64,000 nt of DNA from Bacteroidia bacterium (GTDB taxonomy: Bacteria; Bacteroidota; Bacteroidia; Bacteroidales; CAJPTX01). Positions 10,594 through 38,343 of the stretch are shown here, piece by piece. A program made the position numbers and the translations under genes. The stretch lies in assembly GCA_905373475.1 (NCBI GenBank), contig CAJPTC010000013.1, positions 2,060 through 66,059 on the forward strand, written 5' to 3'. The notes below the pieces were generated by a model. The model did no database searches. It worked only from the letters and a program-made list of their open reading frames with translations, and was not told the origin of the DNA. Position 1 is the stretch's first letter. Every line of letters begins with the position of its first letter.

Positions 10594-10596
10594 TGA

Positions 10597-11308: not shown

Positions 11309-11529
11309 TGTAGAGACGAGGCATGCTTTGTGCAGTTTCCTCGTGCAATTTATTCGTAGAAATGCAAACATCAAAAGATATTAATACTCTGATTTACAAC
11401 TACATTTTAAACCTCGAATACATAAATTTTTGCAGAAAAGCAATACGAATACCGAAAGATTTTACTTTTCTTTTGATAAAAGGCGCTAACTTAGTTAGCA
11501 TAGATATTAACTAATTGTATAGAGAACAG
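11309..11529 (+). promoter_or_regulatory. Conserved upstream/leader region of giant subtilase gene copy 2
   Basis: Near-identical to 20727-20932. It reads TGTAGAGACGAGGCATGCTTTGTGCAGTTTCCTCGTGCAATTTATTCGTAGAAA.GCAAAC ... TAATACTCTGATT ... AATACGAATACCGAAAGATTTTACT.TTCTTTTGA.AAAAGGCGCTAACTTAGTTAGCA ... TAACTAATTGTATAGAGAACAG-ATG. It contains an ACGAGG..CCTCGT inverted repeat. Confidence 0.5.
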
Positions 11530-14500: not shown

Positions 14501-17500
14501 CTTACTACCAAATTCTACAAAAGACCGACCGCCCCGATGTAGGTATCGCATGGGTAAATGACCCAAAGATTGATGACATGGCAGACATGCATGAGGAGAC
14601 TATTCGGTTCTCTGTGCAGAATTATTCAACGTGTGAGGTAAAAAATGTGCCTGTCTCGGTGCTTGTCGATGATAAGTTGGTTTATACCAATGTTTTTCAA
14701 ACATTAAAGCCCTTTGAAGGGCGGACTGTTTCGTATAAGCACGACTTTACGAGTCAAGAACCTCACAAGTTTAATGTGCGCGTCCGTGCTGAGATAAGTG
14801 GCGACATTGACCCAACGAACAACGAGAAAGAGTTTGAAGTTTACAATATTGGCAATGTCATCGCAATGCCCGAGGTGGTCTATTTTGAATTCTTCGGTCA
14901 GAGCATACGAAAAGTGCCTTATATCTCCCGAAAAATAAATGGTAAACAGCTTTTTGTAGACGGGCGAGGTGCACTCGAACCCTACAAAACCGATCAGGAA
15001 GGTGTATTGCAGATAGTGCCTACGGCATCGAACAGAATAGTGCAGGCTACCTTCCGAGAGTACGATTTGGCAGAAGGAGATACCTTGGCTATTTTCACGG
15101 GGAATGTGCCAACGAACTTAAAAGTAGCACCGCGTAACGCACGAATCAAGCTTACGGGGAAAAGTACAACTCCGCAAGTGTTTGTTTCTGAAGCCGACAA
15201 TGGTGGGCTTACATTCTGTTTTGTGGGTTACAATGAAAGAACTACAGCTGGTGGCTGGATTGCTGAAGTCCAAGAGTTTGAAGCCGAGAATCAGTGGAAA
15301 CTAGAGAGTCTCATAACAGTAGATGGCGAGGAGGTGAACTCCAAAAAGGTGCAAGCAACAATAGAAAATCTATTACCTGTAGATTTGTACAATGTGGGCT
15401 TATATGTTACTGTAAATGGCATGTTTGAGCGTTATACCATCCCAGTTCTGAAGGCTAGTAATCAAACTATTTATACGTTACCGCAACAGTTTAATACAAC
15501 GCCACCTGCACGATACGAAATTGTTGCACAATTGGTAAAAGATGGAGACGTGAGTGATAATGAGAAAAAACTCACTCTCGAATATGATCCGTTGTGGCAC
15601 AACGGAACGATAGCAGCTCCTGAAAAACTGTACATTGCTAGCCTCCGAACCGTAGATAGCAGTACAGTACAAATACAGTCGCAGGCGAAAGTAAATTATA
15701 TGCCTCAACATATTGTACCTCTCTATATGCAGAGCAATAATGTGGTGTGGCTTACGCTCTCGGGCAAACCAACAACGAACGAGCTACCATCGCAGCTCAG
15801 AGTTTGGATAGATGCCAACGACAACAATACTCTCGAAGATGCCGAACTTACAATGGTCGAAGTTGTTGCCAATAAATTGGAGTATCAGATTGCATTTAAC
15901 CTTTCAAATTTCCCAGAAATCAAGGTAGGGAAACATCGGATGCGTCTAATGCTTTCTACCGAAAGCGACTACCAGAAATTTGTAATAGGCGAAACAATTG
16001 TATGGGGGCATGTGGTAGATCTTACGGCAGACGTAAAAGATGGAAACAATCTATATGATTATGAGCTCTCGCTCGTCTCTCTCGTTGCTCCTGTGACAGG
16101 ACACTCTCTAACGGGGGCTGAAAAGGTAACAGTGCGTGTACGCAACAACGGTGTTGCCCCACAAAAGAATGTAGAGCTGGTGCTTACGGTTGATGAACAG
16201 GAAGTGGCTACTGAGAGCATCCCATGTGCACTTGCGGCTGTAGGTGGAGAGGCGGAGTTGTCTTTTTCCAAGCCAATAGATCTGAGTGCGCAGGGCAAAC
16301 ATCTGATAAGTGTAGCACTGAAAAACGCTGATAACAATACTAAGGACAACGAAATAAAAGAGCGCGTCTTTAATATTGCTCCGCAGACAAATACTATTTA
16401 TGGTCTCTCGTTTGTTGGCAATGAGCGCGAGGCAATAGAATTGCCACTGCAGGGGCACAATGTAGATAAGGAATGCACCATTGAGGGGTGGTGGTTGCTT
16501 AATAAACCACAGCGTTGCGAACTCGTAAATGAGGAGGGTATTTGGTTAGCATCGCTTGCTGGCAGTGACCAGTTCCCTGACAATACATTAGTCTTTATGG
16601 CGGGTAACAGCGGGCTACTGCTTAGCAAAACACCTGTACTCAAACCTGGGAAGTGGCAGCATATTGCTGTCTCCATGAAAGTTGCATACGGCTGGAGCGG
16701 CGAAATGACCACTCATCCTACAGTCTATATCGATGGCGAGCTTGTAGAAATGGAACGGTATGGCAATGGTATACTCTCTTTCAAAAACTTATTGCTAAAC
16801 GTCAAGTTTGATGGGCAACTTGCCATGTTCCGACTCTGGAACAAGGAACGTGGTTCAGCTGACCTCCTACAAAATATGACAAAAAGTGTACGTACCGCCG
16901 ATAACAAGTTACCGTCCGACTGTGTAGGTGAATATATTTTTACCGAAGGACAAGGTATAGCATCGGCTTATGGGCAAGGGCGTTATGCTGTAATTCATAG
17001 CCAACGTCCTGATGTTTGGAACCCCATTCAGCGTATTGTAGCAAGTGCACATATGGAAGGCGAGAAAGTGCCTCCGCAATATGTGGAGACCAACAAAATA
17101 AAGATTATAGTTCCCACCGATTTCACAGAGTTCGATAAGGTAAAAGTAACGTTCGATTTGGACTGGCTCGGTGCTACCGTCTCGCATAATGGAACAGTAG
17201 TACTTCCAGAAACGGAGTTAAATTTTGAAACGAGCTCCGATCATACATTACAATTCAAGGCGGAAAAGAAAGATTTCTTCGGTGCCACTCTGGTTCAAGA
17301 GTTCTCTATAAAATTGGAGAATGATGCATCTGGAGCTTGCGACTTGGTAGAACTCGCTATGCAAAAAGCGGACAATCCTGGACTGAAAGATGAAATACTT
17401 TTGACAAACTGCGATCAAACGCTTAAGCTGAATGTAAAACAGGAGGGTGTTACCCCAATAGATGTGCGTAACCTCAAATTGGTAGCTAAACAGCTATCGC

Positions 17501-20500
17501 CTGGTGCAAAGCTCTATTATGAAGGACGCGCTATAGAACCCAATACTCCGTTTGTTGTAGATTTTAGTGTGCCAGTCTACTTACGCGTTGTTGCACAGAA
17601 TGGACGCGACATTAAGTATTATACACTGACCCTCGCAATGGAACAAAACATACAGTGGGGGACGGAAAAAATTACACATGTATTTACTAAAGAGCCCCTT
17701 CTGTTGGATGCTAAAACTACGTCGGGGCTTCCTGTGCAGTACATTTCAGCCAATCCGTCGGTGGTAAGTTTTGATCCCGACGGAAAGTGTATTGTTGCAG
17801 GAGTGGGGACTACTACAATTCGGGCAACGCAAACAGGCAATGCACAGTATCTCGCAGCATCTTCAGTGGAACGCGCAGTAGAGATTACACCAGCTCCGCT
17901 TACAATTAAAATGAAAGATGCGCGTATGGCACAAGGCGACCCGATGCCCGAATTTGAATTCGAGTACGAGGGTTTACAGTTTGAGAATACGCAGTATAAG
18001 TTTGATATCCCTTACGAAATACTGGATGCTAAAGGGCTACCTTGGGAAGGAACAGAGCAGCTTGCGCAAGGTGAATATGTGGTCAGACCGAAGGGTTACA
18101 CCGTACCAGTTCGTCGCGATAACTATCAGGTAACCTACAATAATGGTAAGCTAATAGTAGCGCCCGCAAGCGCTGCACAGAAGGTCACTTTTAAGGTGAT
18201 CGATGAGACAGGGAATGTATTACCCAACATTGCATTGAAATGTGCTCAATATCGTCTACAAACGAATGAAAATGGGATAGCCGAGCTGTATCTAACGCCT
18301 GCTACTTACCAAGTATATGCTCGCAAAACAGATTATGCGACTGCGAAGGTGGAATTTGTTGTGACGAATCAAGTGCAAACGGTACATGTGCAGCTTCGCA
18401 GGCTTGTACATGAACTATCGTACACAGCCGATGCATTTGGCGTAATACAAGGTAAAGCGACACAGCGGGTTGCAAATGGAGGAAATGGTGAGCGAGTAAT
18501 TGCAGTGCCCATTACTCCATCTTATCGCTTCAAGCGGTGGTCGGATGGTTCTACAGAGGCATCTCGTGTCGATATGAACGTTACGAAGGGTATAGCGGTC
18601 AGGGCAGAATTTGAAGAAGCCTCCTACACCCTATCTTACAAGCTTGGAAAAGGGGGAAAATGGGTCGCTGGACAACAAACGCAAACGGTACAACACGGGA
18701 AAAATGGTACATCTGTCGAGGTTGAACCGTTAGATGGTTGGGTTTTCATTGGTTGGTCGGATGGTAATGAAGATGCTATGCGCACGGATACGGATGTTGT
18801 AAAAGACATTGACGTAGAAGCTCAATTCTTCAAACCACATCTGCTTACATGGACTGAGAATTTTGACCTTGGGGATGACGTATTACGATACTGGTTCTTT
18901 GATGTACAAAGCGAAGGCGAAGGTTGGAAACTAGTACCCAGCAAAACTGTGCTAGGGGCTGCAGCTGAAGGTGAAATATTGAAAATTGAACCAGTAGGAC
19001 AAAATCCGTTCTATCACGAATGCTTTGTAGAAACCCCTTGGCTTTCGTTGGCGGGAAGATCTGCTGCGGGCGGTGTAAAGATAAGTTATGACCTCTATTA
19101 TAAGAAGGCGCGTAACACAAGTGCTGTGCTTGAGTATAGTTTTGATGAAGAAGATTGGACTTCGATCGAAGAGCTAGAGGAAGGTTCTGGAACGAGGAAG
19201 ACATCTGTAATTCCTGATGGCAATCTTGCAGGCAATGATTTTATCCGTTTCCGTTGGGTGTTTACAAGCGAGAATTTCAATACCTACCTTGCTATAGACA
19301 ACATTTCGGTATCGCTCGATCCGCAACCTGAGGAGCAAACCATGTTAAGATATTTTGCAGGTGAGCATGGTAAGTTGATGGTAGAAGGCGAAACAGAAAA
19401 GGTAAAGACTGTTGAAGTGCAAACTAAGAAGGGCGTAGACGGAGCAAAGGTTACAGCAGTGCCAGATGCTGGTTACCTCTTCGATAAGTGGAGCGATGGG
19501 AAAATGGAAGCAACACGTCAGGATCAGCAGTTACCTGTTACTGTGGGGGCATTTTTCAGACGTCAACTCAAAATACAGTATACGCTAAGCTACAAAGTGA
19601 AAGGAAATGGAATTCTGGAAGGAGTCTTATACCAGCGCCTTGAAGAAGGTGAGATGGGGACACCAGTGTATGCACGTCCTAGCGAAGGAAACAAATTTGT
19701 CCGTTGGTCGGATGGCGTAACAGACAATCCGCGTTCCGATGTAGCTACTGCTACTACTACGTACGAAGCAGAGTTTGAAGTAGATGCTCCTAAAAGATTC
19801 GTCGTAACGCTTGCGAAAAAAGGAGAGGGCGAGCTGAAGATAACGGGCATAGAAGAAAGTAAACTGAATGCCGTTCCCGAAGGCACCGAGCTCACGGCAG
19901 TGGCAACGCCTGCAAAGGGTTGGAAGTTGAAGAGCCTGATGGCAGGCACGCAGGACATCTCGTCAGACGGCAAGTTCACGGTAACAGCCAATGTTGAGGT
20001 GAAGGCAGTGTTTGAAAAAGAAGGTACTATTCCGCAACCCACAACTTTCGCTGTAACGCTTAAGAAAGACGGTGAAGGAGAGCTGAAGGTAACAGGCATT
20101 GAAGAAAGTAAATTGAATGTCGTCCCTGAAGGCACTGAACTCACGGCAGTGGCAACGCCTGCAAAGGGTTGGAAGTTGAAGAGCCTTACGGCGGGTACGC
20201 AGGACATCTTGTCGGACGGTAAGTTCACGGTAACAGCCAATGTTGAGGTAAAGGCAGTATTTGAAAAGAGCACTTTTGTGGAGGATGCAATGCTTGCTAA
20301 CGTGCTTGTAGCGCCCAATCCGTTCGATAATCAATTACGAATTGTAAACGGTGATTTACGAGGGGAATACGCGCTATTGAATGCACAAGGTGCTGTAGTA
20401 CGTAGTGGCAATATGGCTGGTAACGAGGTACTGATTGAAACAAGCGATCTTACTTCGGGGCTCTACCTCTTGCGTCTTACTGCCGAAAATGGTGCAACGA

Positions 20501-20529
20501 AGACAATAACAGTTGTAAAAGACAGATGA
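11530..20529 (+). CDS. Giant (~2,999 aa) multidomain subtilase-family (S8) surface protein with T9SS C-terminal sorting domain, paralog 2
   Basis: The ORF track starts at TTG 11515. The in-frame ATG at 11530 gives MRRSLLLLLFLSIGLLLYA|QEP, colinear with copy 1, so 11530 is used. The S8 motifs are intact: GIWDANIGDHVDYG, SHGMHTSGTIVGSG, LTSNSYG and GTSMACPTVTGHLALL. Domain order matches copy 1 (LamG-like WQHIAVS..VYIDGE..FRLWN, Big_2/MBG, InlB-type repeats, MAM-like, 2 x 83-aa module, CTD VAPNPF..GLYLLRL..KTITVVKDR). The central region carries many substitutions and indels relative to copies 1 and 3; identity was not computed. Confidence 0.9.
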   Translation: MRRSLLLLLFLSIGLLLYAQEPVRFGDHEVYLEANVHPPRRNYKTSSLELGTPAGEKLNVLVQFNTAPISQEALAKKGVVLGDYLGGNAYYAQVTPGSRPSDFVGTGLRTVVPIRSEWKVVTALLQHKIPTWARQNDNIRMRLSWFNSVSWEQVKIELDRIGVSYRANSLFFKNVEIEGSYEQILALAEYEGIAFIQYCKPPEVLSNYHGARLSGGSLLSRPTSLYGRGLTGKNVRIGIWDANIGDHVDYGTRVHNMEFEDPIIEAGSHGMHTSGTIVGSGLCDERGRGLAPAAQLWAYNFGNGLNGKSSALEMYETYIKEHISLTSNSYGYALAAFCEYESFFTYTELANIDVDYLAYYIPDLTHVFAAGNDQDETRCALEWSHATNYSKNIISVGAVNTEGRITSFSSFGPLRDGRLFPIISARGEEVYSTIYGQAYKAEDGTSMACPTVTGHLALLSERWMQLHGGAAPYNYYLKALVANTAQDVGNPGPDYKYGFGILDAEAAVVALENNWHALKALEQGGAEQEIKITVPDGVKELRVALCWSDPVVNKEYAYGECPIVNDLDLTLHAQGKMYYPYTLNPAEPHLPAVATQRNKVDNIEQVRILAPTAGECTIKVGGTVRQGAKQPYAVVWYFDYQKPEIVSPQIADINSPDEELYLHTKNMIAPLRVELSTDGGKSYEVLGQFANNSVFTLPSPIVATNKASLRVIDAQGLIATTAGYFTIMPRVQDLQLTSAPCSTLGWQLAWNAVDEAAKYKILRADLEKETYNEIAEVEGTTTTYALQDNQVSAARNMYAVQAISASGLCGARSRGVITNQPQPKVLTLTDLPYTETFVGWPMQHVAVITGSKLEFSVQEPHPRWGFPLKSQMIAWEGKSDAPDWDKPFEQRDHVGSISACGIDLTNIPLGTQLQLVSYCLLKKPKEDGQVGSLLRVLVDGKELADELGREVIEGDGDEHRIAWDISKYAGEKIALNFEAALASDEDGAIIAYYQILQKTDRPDVGIAWVNDPKIDDMADMHEETIRFSVQNYSTCEVKNVPVSVLVDDKLVYTNVFQTLKPFEGRTVSYKHDFTSQEPHKFNVRVRAEISGDIDPTNNEKEFEVYNIGNVIAMPEVVYFEFFGQSIRKVPYISRKINGKQLFVDGRGALEPYKTDQEGVLQIVPTASNRIVQATFREYDLAEGDTLAIFTGNVPTNLKVAPRNARIKLTGKSTTPQVFVSEADNGGLTFCFVGYNERTTAGGWIAEVQEFEAENQWKLESLITVDGEEVNSKKVQATIENLLPVDLYNVGLYVTVNGMFERYTIPVLKASNQTIYTLPQQFNTTPPARYEIVAQLVKDGDVSDNEKKLTLEYDPLWHNGTIAAPEKLYIASLRTVDSSTVQIQSQAKVNYMPQHIVPLYMQSNNVVWLTLSGKPTTNELPSQLRVWIDANDNNTLEDAELTMVEVVANKLEYQIAFNLSNFPEIKVGKHRMRLMLSTESDYQKFVIGETIVWGHVVDLTADVKDGNNLYDYELSLVSLVAPVTGHSLTGAEKVTVRVRNNGVAPQKNVELVLTVDEQEVATESIPCALAAVGGEAELSFSKPIDLSAQGKHLISVALKNADNNTKDNEIKERVFNIAPQTNTIYGLSFVGNEREAIELPLQGHNVDKECTIEGWWLLNKPQRCELVNEEGIWLASLAGSDQFPDNTLVFMAGNSGLLLSKTPVLKPGKWQHIAVSMKVAYGWSGEMTTHPTVYIDGELVEMERYGNGILSFKNLLLNVKFDGQLAMFRLWNKERGSADLLQNMTKSVRTADNKLPSDCVGEYIFTEGQGIASAYGQGRYAVIHSQRPDVWNPIQRIVASAHMEGEKVPPQYVETNKIKIIVPTDFTEFDKVKVTFDLDWLGATVSHNGTVVLPETELNFETSSDHTLQFKAEKKDFFGATLVQEFSIKLENDASGACDLVELAMQKADNPGLKDEILLTNCDQTLKLNVKQEGVTPIDVRNLKLVAKQLSPGAKLYYEGRAIEPNTPFVVDFSVPVYLRVVAQNGRDIKYYTLTLAMEQNIQWGTEKITHVFTKEPLLLDAKTTSGLPVQYISANPSVVSFDPDGKCIVAGVGTTTIRATQTGNAQYLAASSVERAVEITPAPLTIKMKDARMAQGDPMPEFEFEYEGLQFENTQYKFDIPYEILDAKGLPWEGTEQLAQGEYVVRPKGYTVPVRRDNYQVTYNNGKLIVAPASAAQKVTFKVIDETGNVLPNIALKCAQYRLQTNENGIAELYLTPATYQVYARKTDYATAKVEFVVTNQVQTVHVQLRRLVHELSYTADAFGVIQGKATQRVANGGNGERVIAVPITPSYRFKRWSDGSTEASRVDMNVTKGIAVRAEFEEASYTLSYKLGKGGKWVAGQQTQTVQHGKNGTSVEVEPLDGWVFIGWSDGNEDAMRTDTDVVKDIDVEAQFFKPHLLTWTENFDLGDDVLRYWFFDVQSEGEGWKLVPSKTVLGAAAEGEILKIEPVGQNPFYHECFVETPWLSLAGRSAAGGVKISYDLYYKKARNTSAVLEYSFDEEDWTSIEELEEGSGTRKTSVIPDGNLAGNDFIRFRWVFTSENFNTYLAIDNISVSLDPQPEEQTMLRYFAGEHGKLMVEGETEKVKTVEVQTKKGVDGAKVTAVPDAGYLFDKWSDGKMEATRQDQQLPVTVGAFFRRQLKIQYTLSYKVKGNGILEGVLYQRLEEGEMGTPVYARPSEGNKFVRWSDGVTDNPRSDVATATTTYEAEFEVDAPKRFVVTLAKKGEGELKITGIEESKLNAVPEGTELTAVATPAKGWKLKSLMAGTQDISSDGKFTVTANVEVKAVFEKEGTIPQPTTFAVTLKKDGEGELKVTGIEESKLNVVPEGTELTAVATPAKGWKLKSLTAGTQDILSDGKFTVTANVEVKAVFEKSTFVEDAMLANVLVAPNPFDNQLRIVNGDLRGEYALLNAQGAVVRSGNMAGNEVLIETSDLTSGLYLLRLTAENGATKTITVVKDR
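19798..20268 (+). repeat. In-frame tandem duplication (2 x ~249 bp = 83 aa) inside giant gene 2
   Basis: Copy starts lie at 19798 and 20047: FVVTLAKKGEGELKITGIEESKLNAVPEGTELTAVATPAKGWKLKSL.. and FAVTLKKDGEGELKVTGIEESKLNVVPEGTELTAVATPAKGWKLKSL... Long stretches are identical to 9865-10330 and 29441-29911. Confidence 0.9.
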
Positions 20530-20532
20530 TTT

Positions 20533-20726
20533 GTAGGGGCAAGGCGTGCCTCGCCCGAATGAACGCATTGATAATCAATGATAACGGGCATGACTTTCGG
20601 GTTGTGCCCGTTTTTGATAGGTTTTCGCCCAACGTTTCACATTGGGCTAAAAACACCCACCACCGCCATACGGCGGGGTTCTATTACGGCGTGCCATGGC
20701 GCGCTGCTACACGTATTAATGTGTTT
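20533..20726. repeat. REP-like palindromic modules in the gene2-gene3 spacer
   Basis: TGTAGGGGCAAGGCGTGCCTCGCCC hairpin at 20533-20556; GCCCAACGTTTCACATTGGGC at 20627-20647; CCGCCATACGGCGGGGTTCTAT at 20663-20684; ACGGCGTGCCATGGCGCGCTGCTACACGTA at 20686-20715. The module order matches 11056-11140. Confidence 0.75.
20585..20615 (+). terminator. Putative intrinsic terminator downstream of giant gene 2
   Basis: CGGGCATGAC-TTTCGG-GTTGTGCCCG stem (with G-U pairs) followed by TTTTT. A homologous hairpin plus T-run lies at 30286-30317 after gene 3. Confidence 0.55.
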
Positions 20727-20932
20727 TGTAGAGACGAGGCATGCTTTGTGCAGTTTCCTCGTGCAATTTATTCGTAGAAACGCAAACGAAAATATATAAT
20801 ACTCTGATTGATAATAATATTTTTCGTTTCATATACATGTTTTCTTAGAAATACGAATACCGAAAGATTTTACTCTTCTTTTGACAAAAGGCGCTAACTT
20901 AGTTAGCAATTAACTAATTGTATAGAGAACAG
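20727..20932 (+). promoter_or_regulatory. Conserved upstream/leader region of giant subtilase gene copy 3
   Basis: Near-identical to 11309-11529 (see that feature) and shares its blocks with 1181-1374. Confidence 0.5.
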
Positions 20933-23900
20933 ATGAGACGATCTTTACTTTTGTTACTCTTTTTGAGCATTGGTTTATTGCTTTATGCACAAGAGCCAGT
21001 TCGTTTTGGAGACCATGAGGTTTACCTAGAGGCGAATGTACACGCCAAGGTACGTGGACACAAAACGTCTAGTTTGGAGTTGGGTATTCCTACTGGCGAA
21101 AAACTCAACGTGCTAGTTCAGTTTGGAACTGAGAAAATCTCTTACGAGGCGTTGAAGCAAAAAGGTGTAAAATTGGGCGATTACCTTGGAAGCAATGCCT
21201 ACTATGCTCAAGTAGATCCAGGTAGCCGTCCGAGCGATTTTGTGGGTACTGGGCTTCGTACAGTAGTACCCATTCGTGGTGAGTGGAAAGTGGTGAACAG
21301 CTTACTCCAGAATACTGCTCCAGATTGGGCAGTAGACGGTGCCCGATTAAAGATGACGCTTTCATGGTTCTCTGGTGTATCGTGGGTAAAGGTAAAGTCG
21401 TTGTTGGAGAAAAAGCAGATTGCCTATCATGCAGCATCTGAGCCTCTACAAACCGTGGAGATTGAGGGGACACGCGATGCCATTCTGGCTCTTGCCAGTG
21501 AGGAGTGCGTATCGTTTATTACTTGGACTGCCCCTCCACAAGAAATAACGAATTATCATGGAGCACGCCTAAGTGGTGCGTCTGTATTAAGTCTTCCTCC
21601 TTTGCAAAATGGGCGCGGACTCACAGGGAAAGGGATTCGGATAGGTATTTGGGATGGTAACGTTGGCGATCACGTCGATTATGGTTCTAGGGTACATCGT
21701 TGTGAATTTGAACAATCGATAACTGGAACAGGTGCTCATGGTATGCATACGACGGGGACAATTGTTGGGAGTGGTCTTCTCGACCCACGGACACAAGGCA
21801 TGGCTCCTGAGGCGCAGATTTGGACCTATAATTTCACGGTAGTGTCTAATGGGAAGCCTATACCTCAAAAAATGTATGAGGCATATATGGCAGAGGATAT
21901 TTCGCTTACTTCCAATTCTTATGGTTTGAAGATCAAGAACATTTGTGGGCGCGACGAGCTTTTCAATTATACCTTGATGGGGAATTCGAATGTTGATTAC
22001 CTCTCGTGTAACATTCCTACTTTAACACATGTCTATGCCGCTGGGAATGATCAATACGCCTGCCAACGTCCATTCTCTCATTCGGGGAATTATTCCAAAA
22101 ACATAATTTCAGTTGGAGCACTTGATGCATTCGGTACGATAACAGATTTCTCTAGTTTTGGTCCGCTACTCGATGGTCGTATTTACCCTATCGTAAGCGC
22201 GTACGGTTATGCCGTTCTTTCCACAGTAGATGGGCAGCGATATGAACGGATGAATGGTACCTCTATGGCTTGTCCTACTGTAACGGGTCATCTGGCGTTA
22301 CTCACGCAACGTTGGAAACAATTGCATGGTGGGGCATTGCCCACGAACTATTTTTTGAAGGCGCTGATAGCTAATACGGCGGACGATGCAGGCAACTTAG
22401 GACCAGACTATAAGTATGGCTTTGGTATTCTGAATGCAGAGGCTGCTGTTACCGTAATAGAAGGCAGAACGTACGAATTAGCACAACTAACAACCGATAC
22501 GCAAAAACGAGACTTGACACTTCAAGTGCCGAATGGGGTACAGGAATTGCGCGTGATGCTGTGTTGGAACGACCCCGTTGCGCGAAAAGAATATCTCACA
22601 GGCGAGAGTCCATTAGTAAATGATCTCAACCTTTCTGTAACTTCTGGTGGTACAACACATCTACCTCTAACTTTAGATTTTAAGCACCCCAGTGCATTAG
22701 CGCAAGAAGCGGTGAATAAGGTAGATAATATTGAGCAGGTAGTAATAAAAAATCCAGCGCAGGGAGAATATATTCTTACAGTGAACGGTGTGTTGAAACA
22801 GGGTGACAAACAACCCTACGCACTCGTTTGGTATTTTGACTATCAGCAGCCGACTATTGTTTCTCCTGCTATGGGTGATATTTTTGCAGCGGGCGATACT
22901 GTTTATCTCCGTACGAGGAATATGCAGTCACCTCTTAGCGTCTCTTTTTCTACTGATGATGGAACAACATTTACAGCACTTGGTAGCTACGATGCAAACG
23001 CTGCTGTAGTACTTCCTAAGTCACTTGCTCCGACCAATAGTGCAATTCTCCGTGCAACAGATGCAAACAACCAAACGCTGGAGGTGGCACAATTGACTAT
23101 TATGGGGCAAGTTAAAGGCGTGAAGTTGACAACGTCGCCTTGTAGTAGTGATGGGTGGAAGTTAGCGTGGGAAGAGGTCGCCGATGCGGCGCATTATGAA
23201 ATCCTAAAGGGAGATATCGAGAAAGGAAGTTACGAGAAAGTTGCCGAAGTAGCTGCCCCAGCATTGGAGTATGTAATATCCAGTAGCGATGTAGTTCTCG
23301 GGCGCAATGTTTATGCCGTTCGCGCCGTAAGTAGTACGGGGATTAAAGGACAGCGGAGCGTAGGCGTATTATCGCAGGCAGCAATGCCTCTAATGTTGAG
23401 TGAACAGCAACTCCCATTTTTCGATTCGTTTGTGGGTACACCTTTCCGTTATGTGACAACTGAGGCTGGTAAAAAAATAAAATTTAGGAAAGAGGAAGCC
23501 TTAGAAAATTATGCACTTCCGTTTGATTCTCATATGCTGGTGTGGCAACCTTCACGCCCAGCAAGCGCTTGGGAGAATCCGTTTGTAACGCAACGCGACA
23601 ATGTCGGTGCTGTAAGCATGTGTGAAATAGATCTTTCGGCAATTTCCGCAGGAACAGCGTTGAAGTTTGTAGCCAACTACTATATGGCTAAGAGTGCAAA
23701 GCCAAAAGGGTCGTTGTTACGCTTATTAGTTGATAATGAGGAGGTCGCCGATGAATTAGGACGCACACAAATCGCAGGCGATTCTGATGAGCATTTTGCC
23801 GCTTGGGACTTCTCAGAGTATGCTGGGAAAAAGATAAGGGTTAAGCTAGAATTTGCACTTGCGACTCCGCAAGATGGTATAGTCCTAATTTCTTATCAGC

Positions 23901-26900
23901 TCATGACTAAAACCCAACAGTCTGATGTCGGAATTGTTTGGGCAAATGTGCCAGAGATTAGCGCGAAAGCCTACATGGAGAACGAAGATATTCGTTTCAA
24001 GGTGCAGAATTTCTCTTCCGTGGAAGCCCAAAATATCCCTGTCTCTGTGCAGGTAGACGGTGAAGTGGTATACTCCTACCTAATTGAGACGCTGAAGCCT
24101 TTTGAGGATAGGATCTTCTCCTATAAGCACAATTTTGCGAGTAGGGAGGCGCGTAAGTATGTTGTAGATATACGTACATCTGTAAAAGATGACGCTAAAC
24201 CTCAGAATAACGAGGCGACTTTTGGTGTCTATAATATGGGAGAGGTGCTTACGATGCCAGAAGTAACCTATGTGGAATTTATGGGGTCGTTATTTCCCCA
24301 GATCCCCTATGAGACGCACCGTTTTTCTGGTCATCGGAAATTTGTGGATGGAAGAGGAGAATTAGGCTCGTATAATCCCGGTGAGTTTGCGGTGCTTAAG
24401 CTCCTACCTACTGCTCCCAATAGTGTGTTGCAAGCTACATTCTTGAAGCAAGAGCTTGCAGTAAGTGATACGTTGTTTGTCTTTACAGGCAATGTTCCAA
24501 GCAATTTGCAAGACATCAGTACGAAGGATGCATCTTACATTCTTACGGGGAGATCCTCTGACCCCAGCACCTTTATCTCGGAGGCAACTGACGGAGCGCT
24601 TACATTTATTCTGATCGGCTATAACAAGATTCCTGGGGAAGGGTGGATTGCTAATCTGAGCGAACTACCAATGCCTAATCAGTGGCAATTACTCAAGATA
24701 AAAGAGGTAGCAGGTTCAGATGCTGTGCATAGTAAGCTAGAACTTACGGTAAATAATTTGCTTCCCGTTCCTTTCTATAATGTAGGCGTTTATCTTTCAG
24801 TAGATGGTGTAACAAAACGTTTGACGATCCCTCAATTGCCTGCTGGCGAATCAGTAGTAGTTCTCGACGAAGAGTTGAGTATTGCACCTCCGATGCGCTC
24901 GGAAGTGCTAGTAACACTTGCTAGCGATGGTGATGTAAGCGACAATAGTCAAAAATGCCTCATACAACATGACCCTATTGGGAAACTGGGGGGGAAGATT
25001 ACCTCGCCGAATGCACTTTATATAGCCGAGGTTGCAGTAGTAGGAGAGAAGGATACTATTCGTCTTTTGCCGTCGGAGTATATTACCTATAAGCCCGAAT
25101 GCAAAATTCCTCTTTATACGAAGAGTGAGAATGCTCTAAGAGTTCGTTTATCGGGTAAACCAACGCAAGAGCAGAGTGTTGCTAAGCTTCGGATCTGGAC
25201 AAATCTTGACGGTAACAACGAACTGAAGGATGAAGCCCCTGAACTTATCGTAGTCCCCTTGCAAAAGGACAAGAGCGGCTATGAGGCTGTGATAAATTTG
25301 TCTGCTGTTACCTCAATAGCCTTGGGAGAACAACGAATGCGTGTAATGCTGGCAACAGATGAAGGATATGCCCTGTTCAAAGAAGGGAAGGAAATGGAAT
25401 GGGGAAGTGTTGTCGATTTTACTGCTTTAATCCGCGAAGGTGTCAGTCCGAATGATTATGAACTTGCCCTATTGCGCTTTCAATCACCCAAAACCGCTCA
25501 TACATTAGGGGTTGCCGAGCCAATATCGCTAAAGGTGCGCAACAATGGTTTGGCAAAACTCACTAGCATAGCGCTCTCATGTATGGTCGATAATTTGACG
25601 TTTGACGAGACGGTGAATTGTGATATTGCTCCGCGCGGTGGTGTGGGGACTGTTACGTTGTCGCATGGGGCAGATTTGAGTCTTGAAGGGAAACACACCA
25701 TCCAGATTGCTCTGAAAAATAAGGATGTTAACCAGGCTGATAACAGCTTAAAGCTTACTGTATTTAATATTCCCGCACGGACTGAAGATTTGTATTCGCT
25801 CTCTTTTGTAGGCGATAAGGAGGAATATGTGAGTTTCCCACGTGTTGCACAGAATATAGAGAATGAGGCAACGGTAGAAGGTTGGTGGTATCTTAATAAG
25901 CCACAGATGAGTGGTCTCGTTTATGGCGGAGAAAACGGAATACAAGTGCTTTCTTTGGCGGGGCATAAAGATTATCCCGACAATTCGTTGGTTGTTTTGA
26001 TCGGTCCCAATGGCGGTTATGTGAGTAAACAACCTGTAATAAAGCCCGAACAGTGGCAGCATATCGCAGTGACGCTAGTTCAAGACGAAGATATGTTTAC
26101 AGGCAATATGCTGACTACTGCGGAAGTATTTATTGATGGGCAAAAAATACAATTAAAACGCTTACGTTATGATGGCTTTAAGCTAGAACACCTCTGGGCA
26201 AATGTGCGTCTTCAAGGGCAAAATGCAATGTTCCGTTTATGGAATACAGTGCGTACGCCTGCCGAGATAAAAGACAATATGTGCAAGAGCGTTCGTATTG
26301 CTGATGGTACATTGCCTACAGGTTGTGAGGCAGAGTTCCTTTATACAGAGGGACGTAGTCAAGCATCGGCATCGGGAGATGAACACTTTGCAATGATTCG
26401 TAGTGAACGCACCGATGTTTGGAAAAAGCTAGAGCGGGTAGTTAGAAGCGTGGAGGTTGCTCAACAAGTGCGTCCGACGGAGCATGAGGGCAGCGCTATG
26501 ACCATAACTTTACCGCAAGACTTTGTTGGCTTTGACAAAGTAAAGTTGCAATTCTTGTCAGATTGGGCAGACGCTGAAATAACCTATAGCAGTGCTGTTA
26601 TAACTTCGGATACGGAGATAGATTTCTCGCAAAATTCCGAGCACAAGTTAGCCTTTAAGGCTGTTAAGAGTGATTTATTTGGCAAGACTCTGACGCAAGA
26701 TTTCACGGTTCAATTAAAGAATGATCTGTCCAACGCTTGTGATATAGAAGAGCTGGCGCTTCTAAAACTTAAAAATAGCGGCTTGAAGGAAGATCTTACC
26801 GTAAATAATCCGAGTACTCTAATTGTTTTGGATACTGGTGATGAAGTACTCTCAGATGAATTTGACGCAAGTCATGTGTGTTTAACGATAAAACGGCTCT

Positions 26901-29900
26901 CGGCAGGGGCGAGGCTGTATTACGGAGCAGATGAAATTGTAATGAGTGCTAGCGGTGCAGAAGTATCGCTTGATCTGACTTCGCCACGTAAATTGCGAGT
27001 TGTGGCACAAAATGGTTACGATGCCAAAACCTATACCGTACGTCTTGCTATGGCGCAGACAATAACTTGGTCGGAAGAAAAAATCGTGCATCCATTCGCT
27101 AGTGTTTCACTTGCTCTTGATGCGACAACTTCGTCGGCATTAGTGGTAAGATACAATAGCCTAGACCCGTCTGTTGCTACCGTGGACGCTGCAGGGAATT
27201 TGATAGCGGCGGGTGTCGGAAAAACGAAACTTTTGGCCTACCAAGAAGGAAACGGACAATACAAACCTGCGCCTATAAAAGAGCGAGAGGTAGAAATAAC
27301 ACGTGCTGATCTCACCATTAAGGTGAAAGATGTTACGATGGCGCAAGGTGATATGTTGCCTCCACTCGAATTTGAATATGAGGGGCTACAGTTTGAAGGA
27401 ACAGAACGCGAGTTTACATGGCCGTATGAAATACAAACCTCTGACGGGCAAGTCTGCAGTACAGACCAACAGTTAGTGCCAGGAGTATACCGCATAGTTC
27501 CGAAGGAATATTCGGGGGCATACGAATCGGGGAATTATAGGGTGACACGTGAGAATGGTAAACTAACAGTTCTTGAGGCTCAGCGTGCTAAGGCTATCAC
27601 TTTCGTAGCGAAAGATCAGAACGATGCACCTTTGGCGGGGGTTGTTGTACAGTGTGATGTATACACATATATAACACAAGCAGATGGGAGAGTTACGCTC
27701 TATTTATTACCCAAACAAAAGAGCTATCGTGTATTGGCAAGTAAACTTGGGTATGTATCTGCCGAGCAATCGTTTGTCGTTTCGGAGGCTGCAGAAGTGA
27801 CTTTGAAATTGTTACAACGCGTTTATAAGCTTACCTATCAGACCGATGTCTTTGGTATAATCTCGGGTAGTTCTGAACAAATGATTGCAGCACAGCACGA
27901 TGGCGAGCAAGTAGTGGCAGTACCGCGAGATAGACAACATCGTTTCAAACAATGGTCGGATGGGGTGACAACTGCCGCACGTACCGATAAGAACGTTACA
28001 GCCGATATAAGTGCAACTGCGGAGTTTGAACCATATTTTTATACGCTTACTTATTCTGTTTCGGAAGGTGGCGAGTTTGTGTCGGCGGAGGATACCCAAG
28101 TGCAAAAGATAGTACCTGGTGCGGACGGACAGGTAGTGACCGTTAAGGCTAAGGCGGGCTATGTCTTCCTCGGCTGGGAGGATGGAGAACGAAATCTGTC
28201 GCGTACAGATCGAGCTGTTTGGGAAGACAAATCGGTAAAAGCTATATTTTTCAAGCCCTATCGTTTATCGTGGACGGAGAATTTTGATAACGATGCGTTT
28301 ACACTACAAGGCTGGGAATATGGTTCGTCTAAATACGGTCGTGGATGGCAAATCTTCCCTGAAAAGACAATCACCAATAAACCTGATGCTGCGGGTAAAG
28401 TTCTTGCCATTGCTCCACGGTTTGAGCCAGCACCTAAACCTATATATGCCGATTGTTGGGTTGCATCGCCGTGGTTAGCACTGGAAGGGGGAAGTGCGGC
28501 TTCCAAAATTCAGTTGACATATACACATCGGATGCTCGTGATTGGACTCACTACGGCGCATGTAGAGTATTGCTTCGAAGATGGTACATGGGTAAAGGCT
28601 CACGATATTCCCGCAGGTGTAGAGGCGCAGGTAGCTACTCTCGAATTGGAGGCTTCGACTTTAGCCACGCATAAATATGTACGTATACGTTGGGTGTTTA
28701 CTACTCCGAGTTCGTTTACCTACCTTGCTATAGATAATATAAAAGTGACTTTTATTCCCGAAGTAGTGCAGCAGACTTTGCGTTATTTTGCTGAGGAGAA
28801 TGGTTTGTTGCAAAAACAAGGCGAGAATGAGAAGGTGGCGTATCTCGAGCTTCAGACCCCTAAAGATATTCCTGCCACAAAGGTGGTAGCAGTACCTAAT
28901 GAGGGCTTTAGCTTCGATCGGTGGTCAGATGGTCTTGAAAGTGCGGAACGCCAGGATGCGCGGGATGTAACGGTGGTTGCCATGTTCCGTGTTAAGCCCA
29001 AGCCGACGTATACAATTACGTATCTGTTAGGCGAGCATGGGGCAGCATTGCTAGGAAGTCCGTATCAGTCGCGTACGGAGGGAGACTATACAGCGCCTGT
29101 TACAGCAGTTGCTCAAACGGGTTTCAGGTTCTTACAGTGGAATGACGGTGTAAAAGTCAATCCGAGAACTGATAAAGTGACTGCTGAGAATAAGACCTAT
29201 ACAGCACAGTTTATGCAAGTCTTTACATTAACCTACGTTGCAGGCGATGGTGGTACAATTGTAGGTACTACTCCGCAAACGGTCGATGCTGGTGGTAGCG
29301 GTACAGAGGTAGAAGCGAAAGCCAATGCAGGTTACCACTTCGTTAAGTGGAACGATGGTATTACAACCGCCAAACGTACCGAAACCAATGTACAAGCCAG
29401 CAAGACGTATACGGCGCAGTTTGAAGCCGATGTGAAGACATTCGCCGTAAAACTCGCTCATGAGGGTGAAGGTACATTAGTTATAACAGGCTATGATGCC
29501 GAGAAGCTTAAGACCGTTCCCGAAGGCACCGAACTCACAGCAGTGGCAACGCCTGCAAAGGGTTGGAAGTTGAAGAGCCTTACGGCGGGTACACAGGACA
29601 TCTCGTCAGACGGCAAGTTCACGGTAACCGCCAATGTTGAGGTGAAGGCAGTATTTGAAGAAGAAGGTAGTGGTCCGCAACCTAAGACGTTCGCTGTAAC
29701 GCTTGCGAAAGAAGGCGAAGGCAAGCTGAAGATAACGGGCATAGAAGAAAGTAAACTGAATGCCGTTCCCGAAGGCACCGAGCTCACGGCAGTGGCAACG
29801 CCTGCAAAGGGTTGGAAGTTGAAGCGCCTTACAGCAGGTACACAGGACATCTCGTCAGACGGTAAGTTCACGGTAACCGCGGATGTTGAGGTAAAGGCAG

Positions 29901-30172
29901 TGTTTGTGAAGAGTACTTCTGTTGACGATGCTGTATTGGCCAATGTGCTTGTAGCGCCTAATCCGTTCGATAATCAATTACGAATTGTAAACGGCGATTT
30001 ACGAGGGGAATATGCGTTATTGAATGCACAAGGTGTTGTAGTACGTAGTGGCAGTATGGCTGGTAACGAGGTACTGATTGAAACTAGCGATCTTATTTCA
30101 GGTCTCTACCTCTTGCGTCTCACTTCCGAAAATGGTGCAACGAGGACAATAACAGTCGTAAAAGAAAGATAA
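20933..30172 (+). CDS. Giant (~3,079 aa) multidomain subtilase-family (S8) surface protein with T9SS C-terminal sorting domain, paralog 3
   Basis: The track starts at TTG 20918; the ATG at 20933 gives MRRSLLLLLFLSIGLLLYA|QEP. The S8 motifs are intact: GIWDGNVGDHVDYG, AHGMHTTGTIVGSG, LTSNSYG and GTSMACPTVTGHLALL. Domain order matches copies 1 and 2 (LamG-like WQHIAVT..VFIDGQ..FRLWN, Big_2/MBG, InlB-type repeats, MAM-like, 2 x 83-aa module, CTD VAPNPF..GLYLLRL..RTITVVKER). Confidence 0.9.
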   Translation: MRRSLLLLLFLSIGLLLYAQEPVRFGDHEVYLEANVHAKVRGHKTSSLELGIPTGEKLNVLVQFGTEKISYEALKQKGVKLGDYLGSNAYYAQVDPGSRPSDFVGTGLRTVVPIRGEWKVVNSLLQNTAPDWAVDGARLKMTLSWFSGVSWVKVKSLLEKKQIAYHAASEPLQTVEIEGTRDAILALASEECVSFITWTAPPQEITNYHGARLSGASVLSLPPLQNGRGLTGKGIRIGIWDGNVGDHVDYGSRVHRCEFEQSITGTGAHGMHTTGTIVGSGLLDPRTQGMAPEAQIWTYNFTVVSNGKPIPQKMYEAYMAEDISLTSNSYGLKIKNICGRDELFNYTLMGNSNVDYLSCNIPTLTHVYAAGNDQYACQRPFSHSGNYSKNIISVGALDAFGTITDFSSFGPLLDGRIYPIVSAYGYAVLSTVDGQRYERMNGTSMACPTVTGHLALLTQRWKQLHGGALPTNYFLKALIANTADDAGNLGPDYKYGFGILNAEAAVTVIEGRTYELAQLTTDTQKRDLTLQVPNGVQELRVMLCWNDPVARKEYLTGESPLVNDLNLSVTSGGTTHLPLTLDFKHPSALAQEAVNKVDNIEQVVIKNPAQGEYILTVNGVLKQGDKQPYALVWYFDYQQPTIVSPAMGDIFAAGDTVYLRTRNMQSPLSVSFSTDDGTTFTALGSYDANAAVVLPKSLAPTNSAILRATDANNQTLEVAQLTIMGQVKGVKLTTSPCSSDGWKLAWEEVADAAHYEILKGDIEKGSYEKVAEVAAPALEYVISSSDVVLGRNVYAVRAVSSTGIKGQRSVGVLSQAAMPLMLSEQQLPFFDSFVGTPFRYVTTEAGKKIKFRKEEALENYALPFDSHMLVWQPSRPASAWENPFVTQRDNVGAVSMCEIDLSAISAGTALKFVANYYMAKSAKPKGSLLRLLVDNEEVADELGRTQIAGDSDEHFAAWDFSEYAGKKIRVKLEFALATPQDGIVLISYQLMTKTQQSDVGIVWANVPEISAKAYMENEDIRFKVQNFSSVEAQNIPVSVQVDGEVVYSYLIETLKPFEDRIFSYKHNFASREARKYVVDIRTSVKDDAKPQNNEATFGVYNMGEVLTMPEVTYVEFMGSLFPQIPYETHRFSGHRKFVDGRGELGSYNPGEFAVLKLLPTAPNSVLQATFLKQELAVSDTLFVFTGNVPSNLQDISTKDASYILTGRSSDPSTFISEATDGALTFILIGYNKIPGEGWIANLSELPMPNQWQLLKIKEVAGSDAVHSKLELTVNNLLPVPFYNVGVYLSVDGVTKRLTIPQLPAGESVVVLDEELSIAPPMRSEVLVTLASDGDVSDNSQKCLIQHDPIGKLGGKITSPNALYIAEVAVVGEKDTIRLLPSEYITYKPECKIPLYTKSENALRVRLSGKPTQEQSVAKLRIWTNLDGNNELKDEAPELIVVPLQKDKSGYEAVINLSAVTSIALGEQRMRVMLATDEGYALFKEGKEMEWGSVVDFTALIREGVSPNDYELALLRFQSPKTAHTLGVAEPISLKVRNNGLAKLTSIALSCMVDNLTFDETVNCDIAPRGGVGTVTLSHGADLSLEGKHTIQIALKNKDVNQADNSLKLTVFNIPARTEDLYSLSFVGDKEEYVSFPRVAQNIENEATVEGWWYLNKPQMSGLVYGGENGIQVLSLAGHKDYPDNSLVVLIGPNGGYVSKQPVIKPEQWQHIAVTLVQDEDMFTGNMLTTAEVFIDGQKIQLKRLRYDGFKLEHLWANVRLQGQNAMFRLWNTVRTPAEIKDNMCKSVRIADGTLPTGCEAEFLYTEGRSQASASGDEHFAMIRSERTDVWKKLERVVRSVEVAQQVRPTEHEGSAMTITLPQDFVGFDKVKLQFLSDWADAEITYSSAVITSDTEIDFSQNSEHKLAFKAVKSDLFGKTLTQDFTVQLKNDLSNACDIEELALLKLKNSGLKEDLTVNNPSTLIVLDTGDEVLSDEFDASHVCLTIKRLSAGARLYYGADEIVMSASGAEVSLDLTSPRKLRVVAQNGYDAKTYTVRLAMAQTITWSEEKIVHPFASVSLALDATTSSALVVRYNSLDPSVATVDAAGNLIAAGVGKTKLLAYQEGNGQYKPAPIKEREVEITRADLTIKVKDVTMAQGDMLPPLEFEYEGLQFEGTEREFTWPYEIQTSDGQVCSTDQQLVPGVYRIVPKEYSGAYESGNYRVTRENGKLTVLEAQRAKAITFVAKDQNDAPLAGVVVQCDVYTYITQADGRVTLYLLPKQKSYRVLASKLGYVSAEQSFVVSEAAEVTLKLLQRVYKLTYQTDVFGIISGSSEQMIAAQHDGEQVVAVPRDRQHRFKQWSDGVTTAARTDKNVTADISATAEFEPYFYTLTYSVSEGGEFVSAEDTQVQKIVPGADGQVVTVKAKAGYVFLGWEDGERNLSRTDRAVWEDKSVKAIFFKPYRLSWTENFDNDAFTLQGWEYGSSKYGRGWQIFPEKTITNKPDAAGKVLAIAPRFEPAPKPIYADCWVASPWLALEGGSAASKIQLTYTHRMLVIGLTTAHVEYCFEDGTWVKAHDIPAGVEAQVATLELEASTLATHKYVRIRWVFTTPSSFTYLAIDNIKVTFIPEVVQQTLRYFAEENGLLQKQGENEKVAYLELQTPKDIPATKVVAVPNEGFSFDRWSDGLESAERQDARDVTVVAMFRVKPKPTYTITYLLGEHGAALLGSPYQSRTEGDYTAPVTAVAQTGFRFLQWNDGVKVNPRTDKVTAENKTYTAQFMQVFTLTYVAGDGGTIVGTTPQTVDAGGSGTEVEAKANAGYHFVKWNDGITTAKRTETNVQASKTYTAQFEADVKTFAVKLAHEGEGTLVITGYDAEKLKTVPEGTELTAVATPAKGWKLKSLTAGTQDISSDGKFTVTANVEVKAVFEEEGSGPQPKTFAVTLAKEGEGKLKITGIEESKLNAVPEGTELTAVATPAKGWKLKRLTAGTQDISSDGKFTVTADVEVKAVFVKSTSVDDAVLANVLVAPNPFDNQLRIVNGDLRGEYALLNAQGVVVRSGSMAGNEVLIETSDLISGLYLLRLTSENGATRTITVVKER
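29441..29911 (+). repeat. In-frame tandem duplication (2 x 249 bp) inside giant gene 3
   Basis: Copy starts lie at 29441 and 29690: FAVKLAHEGEGTLVITGYDAEKLKTVPEGTELTAVATPAKGWKLKSL.. and FAVTLAKEGEGKLKITGIEESKLNAVPEGTELTAVATPAKGWKLKRL... Confidence 0.9.
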
Positions 30173-38292: not shown

Positions 38293-38308
38293 ATACTATT
38301 CCATGACA

Positions 38309-38343
38309 GACCTCGACACGTCCTATGGCGTGCCGAGGTCTTT
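38309..38343 (+). terminator. Putative intrinsic terminator after the C10 protease gene
   Basis: GACCTCGACACG-TCCTATGG-CGTGCCGAGGTC (12-bp stem, one mismatch) followed by TTT. Confidence 0.55.

Follow-up and report, generated by a model that had tools for sequence, protein, structure and literature searches.

How does a gene come to begin like one of its neighbors and, within a few nucleotides, to continue like another? This question is raised by g3, the last of three tandem genes on contig CAJPTC010000013.1 (assembly GCA_905373475.1) from an uncultured member of the Bacteroidales, a lineage in which some related metagenome-assembled genomes (MAGs) are labelled as oral samples. Within the window, by which we mean the whole stretch of 64,000 nucleotides (nt) that was analyzed, three same-strand open reading frames (ORFs), g1, g2, and g3, span 1375-30172, and each encodes a giant S8 serine peptidase of ~3000 amino acids. 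An earlier examination of the letters alone (the sequence-only reading) had proposed that the 5' end of g3 is a chimera of g2 and g1. We find that g3 is a mosaic at its 5' end and again at its 3' end; with a probability of roughly 85%, it was made by ectopic gene conversion between resident paralogs, occurring repeatedly and confined to modules at the ends of the genes.

Indeed, the first 107 nt of g3 (20933-21039), held to be the same as those of g2 (11530-11636), are identical at 107 of 107 positions, and g1 matches g3 over this stretch at only 89 of the 107. The switch was said to come right after a shared sequence, CTAGAGGCGAATGT; this lies within a 17-nt stretch, TACCTAGAGGCGAATGT (21023-21039), that is the same in all three genes. 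From 21026 onward the next 60 nt are those of g1 (60/60), the full exact match between g3 and g1 being the 63 nt of 21023-21085. The claim that g3 then stays g1-like for ~250 nt also stands: over 21040-21292 it is identical to g1 at 235 of 253 positions (92.9%), differing at 18, and to g2, described as very different here, at 181 (71.5%). The peptides quoted for the region are correct as well. The exact match between g3 and g2, 131 nt long (20909-21039), overlaps the exact match to g1 by 17 nt, and this overlap, the junction, lies 91-107 nt from the ATG of g3.

The alignment does show a change of nearest paralog around 21026-21039, at 21022|21040. Informative sites split 37 g2-like to 0 g1-like over 20852-21039 and 11 to 65 over 21040-21290 (Fisher p=2.6e-20). 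The maximum chi-square is 66.3, with the break between informative sites 21022 and 21040 (p<5e-5); none of 20000 permutations reached this value, the highest being 21.9. The maximum descent at the junction is 57 (p<5e-5).

The sequence-only reading also took most of the leader upstream of g3 to be g2-like. As a whole the leader is 82% identical to that of g2, which bears the statement out in part, but it is itself a mosaic, with a block nearer g1 at 20781-20851. The proximal leader that follows, 20852-20932, is g2-like (79 matches against 2 mismatches, plus a 5-nt indel). It contains a near-perfect palindrome, GCGCTAACTTAGTTAGCA, at 20891-20908 (also at 11484-11501), 25-40 nt upstream of the g3 and g2 starts; this palindrome, a possible operator or hairpin of the 5' untranslated region, is retained only in part in g1. 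No known RNA was found by Rfam in the window, leaders included, and a sigma-70 promoter scan of the leader, which does not cover Bacteroidetes promoters, gave no match. Coordinates of the genes, tracts, and breakpoints are collected in Table 1.

Table 1. Window coordinates of the three genes and of the tracts, junctions, and counterparts that make up the mosaic ends of g3.
Feature	Position	Strand	Description	Basis
g1	1375..10593	+	3072 aa (amino acids); predicted signal peptide, prodomain-like N-terminus, Peptidase_S8, CARDB / Laminin_G_3 / Big_2 / MBG_2 / Flg_new_2 repeats, C-terminal sorting domain	ORF and Pfam
g2	11530..20529	+	2999 aa; paralog of g1; body ~57% identical in nt and 51% in aa to g1 and g3	
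g3	20933..30172	+	3079 aa; paralog with mosaic 5' and 3' ends	ORF, alignment, Pfam, TIGR04183
g3 leader block equal to g2 leader	20727..20780	+	54/54 to g2 (11309-11362), 0.42 to g1	Repeat D11
g3 leader block nearer g1	20781..20851	+	Identity 0.75 to g1, 0.59 to g2; 1201-1259 versus 20765-20823, 90%	Repeat D14
g2-type tract of g3	20852..21039	+	Proximal leader and codons 1-36 (signal peptide, first mature residues)	37 g2-like : 0 g1-like sites
Junction interval	21023..21039	+	Identical in g1 (1465-1481) and g2 (11620-11636); encodes part of the family-wide VYLEANV motif	
g1-type tract of g3	21040..21292	+	Codons 37-120: linker and first ferredoxin-like / prodomain-like subdomain; ends at module boundary	
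g1 counterpart of junction and g1-type tract	1465..1734	+	Candidate donor or co-converted partner; same sequence in g1 of strain L061	
g2 counterpart of g2-type tract	11506..11636	+	131 nt identical to g3 20909-21039	
g1-like shoulder in g3	29173..29470	+	g1-g3 identity up to 0.89 versus ~0.5 for g2	94 g1-like : 22 g2-like sites
3' breakpoint interval of g3	29919..29948	+	g1-like or shared to g2-like	Maximum chi-square 61.7, p<5e-5
g2-like tract in g3 sorting-domain region	29948..30072	+	g2-g3 identity 0.86-0.95 versus 0.62-0.66 for g1	39 g2-like : 4 g1-like sites
3' homology module of g1	9862..10626	+	Flg_new_2 repeats, sorting domain, start of spacer; ~85-95% identical among the three copies	

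In the codon alignment the three genes are 57-58% identical in nucleotides and 51-52% in amino acids overall, and both ends are far more alike. We refer to these ends as the 5' module, a leader of ~205 nt plus codons 1-120, and the 3' module, the last 700-900 nt; in the bodies between them the longest exact match among the copies is no more than 20 nt. Synonymous divergence (dS) was estimated for each segment by the Nei-Gojobori method. In codons 1-35, dS is 0 between g2 and g3 (0 of 24 synonymous sites) and 0.70 between g1 and g3; in codons 37-119, it is 1.7 for g2 and g3 and 0.17 for g1 and g3. In the bodies, synonymous sites are saturated for both pairs (proportion of differing synonymous sites, pS, ~0.78). 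Given that the synonymous sites switch too, constraint at the level of the protein is not able to yield the pattern.

To place the three genes among their relatives, we drew on a scan of species-representative genomes, which gave 56 family loci, with many copies in some MAGs; independent copies came from a second metagenome scan and from contigs reached via P0005. Orthologs of g1 are present on L005 (79% amino acid identity) and L004b (75%), and of g2 on L011 and L014 (86%); a further paralog of the same species, M2, is found on contig L001 and has its ortholog on L010. Neighbor-joining trees of adjacent codon segments conflict with one another. For codons 1-35, g2 and g3 group together with a bootstrap of 100; for codons 37-120, g1, g3, and M2 form one group and g2, L011, and L014 another, each with a bootstrap of 100; and for codons 130-300 there are only groupings of orthologs (bootstrap 99-100) and none within the genome. 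Likewise, the nearest neighbors in the body are cross-species orthologs (0.64-0.86), and those in codons 37-120 are same-species paralogs (0.90-0.93), above the ortholog level of 0.76-0.79. These groupings show that the bodies are older than the species, and that pieces of the 5' module were copied between paralogs within the species. The evidence supports recombination among paralogs, the only reading that fits it. We tried to find the donor of the g1-like tract by way of the orthologs, and it could not be named; codons 37-120 of g1, g3, and M2 are about equally far (~0.78) from foreign copies.

The same signature recurs elsewhere in the family. When pairs of paralogs are ranked by how far the identity of the module exceeds that of the body, the top seven pairs all come from within one genome or species; in L004a/L004b and L006/L029, module identity is 0.92-0.93 versus 0.61-0.63 for the body. 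Overall, similarity of the 5' module does not differ significantly between within-genome and between-genome pairs of paralogs (Mann-Whitney p=0.33). With the extreme outliers found only within genomes, conversion thus affects individual pairs sporadically, not the genome as a whole. All converted pairs lose identity at codon ~120, from ~0.9 to ~0.45, a boundary common to within-genome pairs in three species. The stretch that follows (21293-21620, g3 codons ~121-230, and its equivalents in g1 and g2) is the most divergent of the gene (paralogs are 0.3-0.5 identical in nt here) and coincides with the second ferredoxin-like / prodomain-like unit; the drop is equally sharp in pairs of paralogs from two other species.

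The 3' end of g3 is also mosaic. Downstream of the g1-like shoulder, ~29480-29900 resembles both g1 and g2, and past the breakpoint interval the sorting-domain region is g2-like (Table 1). Each of the three genes closes with two tandem units of 246-249 nt (Flg_new_2 / InlB B-repeat, ~82 amino acids) at 9907-10452, 19840-20388, and 29483-30031. Those of g1 are nearly identical as protein, which points to homogenization within the gene on top of that between genes. We also considered one double crossover that replaced the whole body of g3 inside a g2-type frame; we rate this as less likely because the outer g2-like tracts differ in age, with 100% identity at the 5' end versus ~93-95% at the 3' end. 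In the spacers beyond the genes, we observed a 59-nt repeat, CCCAACGTTTTACATTGGGCTAAAAATACCCACCACCGCCATACGGCGGGGTTC, with two small hairpins, which looks like a small element of the repetitive extragenic palindrome (REP) or miniature inverted-repeat transposable element (MITE) kind. Its four copies are 76-95% identical, three of them in the g1-g2 spacer (10642-10700, 10781-10839, and 11052-11110) and one in the g2-g3 spacer (20623-20681).

Other assemblies carry the parental forms as well as further chimeras; samples with members of the same species include ERZ27319407, ERZ27320036, and ERZ1033933. Here we write A for codons 1-36 and B for codons 37-120, followed by 1 or 2 for g1-type or g2-type sequence, such that g3 is A2+B1. 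The g2-type 5' end is unbroken in four assemblies and the g1-type end in two; g2 is A2+B2 in L001, L060, and L061, and g1 is A1+B1 in L061. The A2+B1 combination is also found in M2 and in L002, from two other samples, where g1 states at 21007 and 21015 put the switch ~20-30 nt upstream of that in g3. The g2 gene of L060 bears a separate patch of g1/g3 type at 21184-21232 (6/6 differing sites); within this patch the L060 ortholog, read as the reverse complement, has a 10-nt deletion equivalent to 21209-21218 of g3, which would shift the frame if real and reflects either a pseudogene or an assembly error. At codon 2 (site 11534), g2 of the window has G, like g3 and all copies other than g2, and g2 of L001, L060, and L061 has A. 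That g2 and g3 of the window have this G in common argues that the partner in the exchange was the resident copy; the G itself could stem from a minor transfer in the reverse direction, or from a mutation older than the exchange. When metagenomes were scanned for the exact junction of g3, with codon 28 set to either His or Arg, nothing matched; a looser pattern returned only orthologs of g1 and g2.

The content and order of the array differ in every assembly that we examined: g1-g2-g3 in the window; g2, a PDDEXK_9 gene, and g1 in L061; and X1, PDDEXK_9, M2, and g2 in L001. The PDDEXK_9 gene, which encodes a 540-amino acid AAA-ATPase-like protein, lies between X1 and M2 at 7983-9605 (- strand) of L001 and between g2 and g1 in L061; tblastn found no trace of it in the window. 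These differences are suggestive of rearrangement through the modules, and only suggestive, because metagenome assemblers can switch paths in exact repeats. L001 is a case in point. It equals the window over 9988-11673 save for repeat-associated changes and two single-nucleotide polymorphisms, and upstream of 9988 it carries the body of M2, not that of g1; the g1 sequence from 9988 onward is thus the 3' end of a different paralog there. It departs from the window mainly at copies of CCCAACGTTTTACATTGGGCTAAAAATACCCACCACCGCCATACGGCGGGGTTC, where 50 nt are inserted at 10641 and 13 mismatches cluster at 10794-10886. We had considered L001 as proof of a swap of bodies between strains and have downgraded it, as the exact repeat of the 3' module could have let MEGAHIT (k=141) change paths inside it; what can safely be said is that M2 and g1 have a long exact 3' stretch in common, nothing more. 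M2 itself (L001 10001-19887) is called as two ORFs of 338 and 2963 amino acids, with a frameshift near codon 330. The identical 338-amino acid product is present in two samples, L001 and L002; the frameshift may mark M2 as a true pseudogene or as a gene in a phase-off state. In another MAG, CAJPTS, assembled from short reads (L006, L025, L029, L039, and L042), many contigs measure ~9 kb and contain a single paralog, beginning 90-350 nt ahead of its ATG. These contig ends indicate that the assembly breaks in the repeated leader and 3' modules, which suggests that this species has equally homogenized ends.

We favor the following explanation. The gene bodies diverged before the related species split, and the 5' and 3' modules stayed similar enough to recombine; non-reciprocal homologous recombination between resident copies would then repeatedly copy short tracts inside the modules. 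In an older event, codons 37-120 of g3 would have become g1-like (93% identity, dS 0.17), as part of a homogenization of g1, g3, and M2 in these codons that has been followed by divergence of 7-10%. Very recently, g2 sequence would have been laid over the proximal leader and codons 1-36 of g3 (131 nt exact, 0% divergence), with the 3' end of this tract falling within the 17-nt invariant stretch 21023-21039. Such exchange would keep the ends of the genes alike and the array able to recombine. The sequence-only reading had left the choice between conversion and crossover among the paralogs; recombination stands, and of the two, conversion fits. The g1-like tract is bounded, with g3 past 21292 as distant from g1 (~57% identity) as from g2, and upstream the g2-like tract gives way to the g1-like leader block 20781-20851. 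With the tracts bounded on both sides, the data exclude a single unequal crossover and agree with short non-reciprocal tracts. The tracts lie in regions with long exact matches, and those in the bodies do not exceed 20 nt; exchange would be confined to the ends for this reason if it depends on a homology search of the RecA type, for which a need for homology is known. In keeping with a role as donors, g2 (A2+B2) and g1 (A1+B1) are each intact, with the same form in other assemblies. As the signal-peptide and prodomain sequences encoded by the exchanged pieces are nearly equivalent, conversion is most likely a near-neutral by-product of homology.

Several points weigh against this explanation, and most of them bear on one rival or another. 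No ortholog of g3 was found in other strains (the nearest, L042, is 67% identical in amino acids), and incongruence among three copies cannot by itself name the recipient. With the polarity reversed, g3 and M2 would hold the standing 5' module of the species, and the leader and codons 1-36 of g2 would have been overwritten from g3, the tract ending at 11620-11636. Segment A of g2 is indeed no nearer to its ortholog L011 (0.78) than to the g1 orthologs (0.81), and G at codon 2, where g2 of L001, L060, and L061 has A, is what a transfer from g3 to g2 would leave, even a small one. Reversal nevertheless needs two independent breakpoints in one 17-nt interval, the A2/B1 junction of g3 and the end of the tract in g2, and a single breakpoint suffices if g2 was the donor; moreover, A2 is joined to B2 in g2 of three other assemblies, so this arrangement predates any event in the window strain, and the G at codon 2 requires at most a tiny back-conversion. 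We consider reversal unlikely, and g3 as the recipient is favored by parsimony, not proven. Natural transformation with DNA from another cell of the species, followed by allelic exchange, might also have supplied the tracts. Strains vary in the order and content of the array, and P. gingivalis, one of the oral Bacteroidetes, is known to exchange alleles of its surface virulence genes (PMC5266723). Yet g3 matches the resident g2 at 131 of 131 positions, including the strain-specific G at codon 2 that is lacking in g2 of three other assemblies, and a donor and recipient 9.4 kb apart in direct orientation are the simplest substrate; an outside source is improbable. Resident conversion into g3 remains our preferred reading on both counts.

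Could the mosaic instead lie in the assembly, with reads of one paralog used to build or correct another? Cross-talk between copies during assembly or polishing could underlie the perfect 131-nt identity, a length short enough for short reads to be misplaced; the short-read MAGs of relatives break exactly at the modules, with many CAJPTS contigs one gene long; G at codon 2 is common to g2 and g3 of the window and absent from g2 elsewhere; and the comparator metagenome contigs could themselves be misjoined at the repeated modules. Against an artefact, variants specific to g3 (20875, 20885, and the 5-nt indel) lie in the leader within ~50 nt to the left, and the sequence to the right differs from both g1 and g2, so that the whole mosaic (<250 nt) fits in a single read or read pair. 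Moreover, A2+B1 recurs in M2 and L002 from two other samples, the g1-like tract with its 18 differences is no copy of g1 reads, and the window is contiguous across three 9-kb paralogs. We give an artefact little credence. Programmed variation, through a locus of silent cassettes, an invertase shufflon, or a diversity-generating retroelement, would account for conserved ends, a hypervariable middle, many copies per genome, and a sharp boundary at codon ~120 in three species. It is very hard to reconcile with three full-length copies (2999-3079 amino acids), each with its own leader, start codon, signal peptide, and sorting domain and with no promoterless cassettes, and with tract ends that vary between copies; Pfam scans of all large ORFs in the window found neither a recombinase nor a reverse transcriptase, and the only inverted repeats near the leader, of 13-14 nt, are weak and not convincing as flanking elements. 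Finally, selection without any recombination would invoke a constrained signal peptide and prodomain and fast divergence of g2 codons 37-120. Part of the similarity is indeed purifying selection: the 5' module is conserved above the body across the family, with a baseline nt identity between unrelated copies of ~0.70 versus 0.60, and VYLEANV and other motifs are nearly invariant. This explanation is left with almost no probability by the switch at synonymous sites (dS of 0 versus 0.70, then 0.17 versus 1.7), by the mosaic in the non-coding leader, and by codons 37-120 of g2, which are not fast-evolving and group with the g2 orthologs at 100% bootstrap.

What proteins do these genes encode? Peptidase_S8 (PF00082) is found in g1, g2, and g3 with scores of 106-118 bits against a gathering cutoff of 21.8, and the motifs WD[AG]N, HGMHT, and GTSM[SA]CP, which carry the Asp, His, and Ser, are readable in the alignment. 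On these sequence criteria the three belong to the Peptidase S8 (subtilase) family, and catalysis is predicted. Between the S8 domain and the tail, Pfam finds runs of CARDB, Laminin_G_3, Big_2, MBG_2, CarboxypepD_reg, and Flg_new_2. The type IX secretion system (T9SS) sorting domain TIGR04183 is found in g3 (29.1 bits, cutoff 23), and PF18962 (Por_Secre_tail) scores above its cutoff of 27 in g2 (32.5) and g3 (27.8) and below it in g1 (20.8); despite this, the g1 tail aligns with those of g2 and g3. All three are accordingly annotated as putative T9SS cargo, with an N-terminal signal peptide and a C-terminal sorting domain of type A. In a predicted structure of g3 residues 1-235 (mean predicted local distance difference test, pLDDT, 71), a signal helix and a poorly predicted linker are followed by two ferredoxin-like units. 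Single units resemble subtilisin propeptides (3cnq_P, template modeling (TM) score 0.81; 3whi_B, root-mean-square deviation 1.4 Å; the E-values are weak), and from these high-probability single-domain matches we tentatively assign the N-terminus of g3 as a prodomain. An exact-protein look-up of g3 gave no match, in a database seemingly without family members longer than ~1000 amino acids.

Downstream of the array, Pfam and the large ORFs reveal a SusC/SusD pair, a C10 peptidase, other T9SS cargo, glycyl-tRNA synthetase (GlyRS), and other housekeeping genes. The best named relatives of this GlyRS, in Tenuifilaceae and other Bacteroidales, are ~72% identical to it, and the best metagenome hit is 93% identical, which places the host in an uncultured lineage of the Bacteroidales. 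Besides g1-g3, three genes for T9SS cargo lie at 35638-44308, encoding an Inhibitor_I69 + Peptidase_C10 protease, a 1107-amino acid DUF285 protein, and a 773-amino acid protein. In a 41-nt core (repeat D6), the parts that encode their sorting domains are 68-76% identical in nt to the corresponding parts of g1-g3.

How does this locus compare with known systems? In Neisseria pilE/pilS, Borrelia vlsE, and Treponema tprK, variable regions are copied into one expression site from promoterless donor cassettes. The non-reciprocal copying of tracts between paralogous surface-protein genes that we propose here would be alike; in contrast, all of our copies are complete genes, and exchange affects their conserved ends. 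In the H. pylori babA/babB/babC genes, an N-terminal homology region and a C-terminal one that is >90% identical flank a variable middle, and intragenomic homologous recombination produces chimeras with 5' junctions ~60-240 bp from the start codon, the occupant of a locus depending on the strain (PMC4552749). The junction 91-107 nt from the ATG, the homologous ends, the divergent middle, and the polymorphic arrays described here are all similar. Unlike the dispersed bab loci, which encode Hop-family outer-membrane adhesins, g1-g3 are in tandem and encode 3000-amino acid S8 T9SS peptidases; in g1-g3 Pfam gives S8 peptidase and Ig-like or lectin-like domains only, with no homology to Hop-family adhesins. 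Chimeras of bab also alter phase-variable CT repeats and thus expression, and no such repeat is present in g1-g3. The likeness lies in the architecture of recombination, not in ancestry.

In the biologically nearest case, P. gingivalis, the variation of T9SS cargo proteases and surface proteins comes from domain rearrangement, homologous recombination, gene conversion, and allelic exchange, and the resulting mosaic is unrelated to strain phylogeny (PMC5266723). The factors that we compared are the adhesin domains of kgp/rgpA/hagA and the allelic exchange of Tpr, PrtT, and RagAB. Those proteases are cysteine gingipains and ours S8 serine peptidases; exchange there is mostly between strains and in adhesin domains, and here it affects both the 5' and the 3' ends of giant paralogs that lie in tandem. 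The KLIKK proteases of Tannerella forsythia are another example from the oral Bacteroidetes of arrays of T9SS-secreted proteases with nearly identical terminal modules on different bodies (PMC4404884). Unlike those of g1-g3, the KLIKK bodies belong to different catalytic classes, and the common part is a C-terminal extension plus the sorting domain; fusion of the module to pre-existing protease genes was proposed, with no conversion breakpoints documented (PMC4404884). A full-text literature search combining gene conversion, T9SS, and paralogs returned no paper on the present protease family.

These results show an ordinary, well-known process at work in an unstudied family of proteases and an unstudied bacterial lineage, and no new mechanism. 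What the locus provides is an example with two nested events of different age and breakpoints resolved to 17 and 30 nt, corroborated by other strains, in which a comparison of the locus turned up intact parental 5' ends, a second chimeric paralog, small patches, and differing array orders. There is a practical side as well: because the gene ends are repeated almost exactly within the genome, short-read MAGs break there, and neither the first 350 nt nor the last 800 nt can tell the paralogs apart, which matters for assembly and annotation.

It is conceivable, and we put it forward tentatively, that the modules serve as portable homology arms through which whole hypervariable bodies of ~8.5 kb are exchanged at the level of the population, between positions in the array and between strains, with conversion keeping the arms alike. 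The equally sharp boundary at codon ~120 in three species points in this direction, as do the M2 body with the exact 3' end of g1, upstream of g2 on L001, and the different order of the array in every assembly. The family joins conserved modules for secretion and the prodomain to bodies that predate the species, and its arrays vary between strains; surface proteins in a host-associated niche would be expected to show this pattern under diversifying or frequency-dependent selection.

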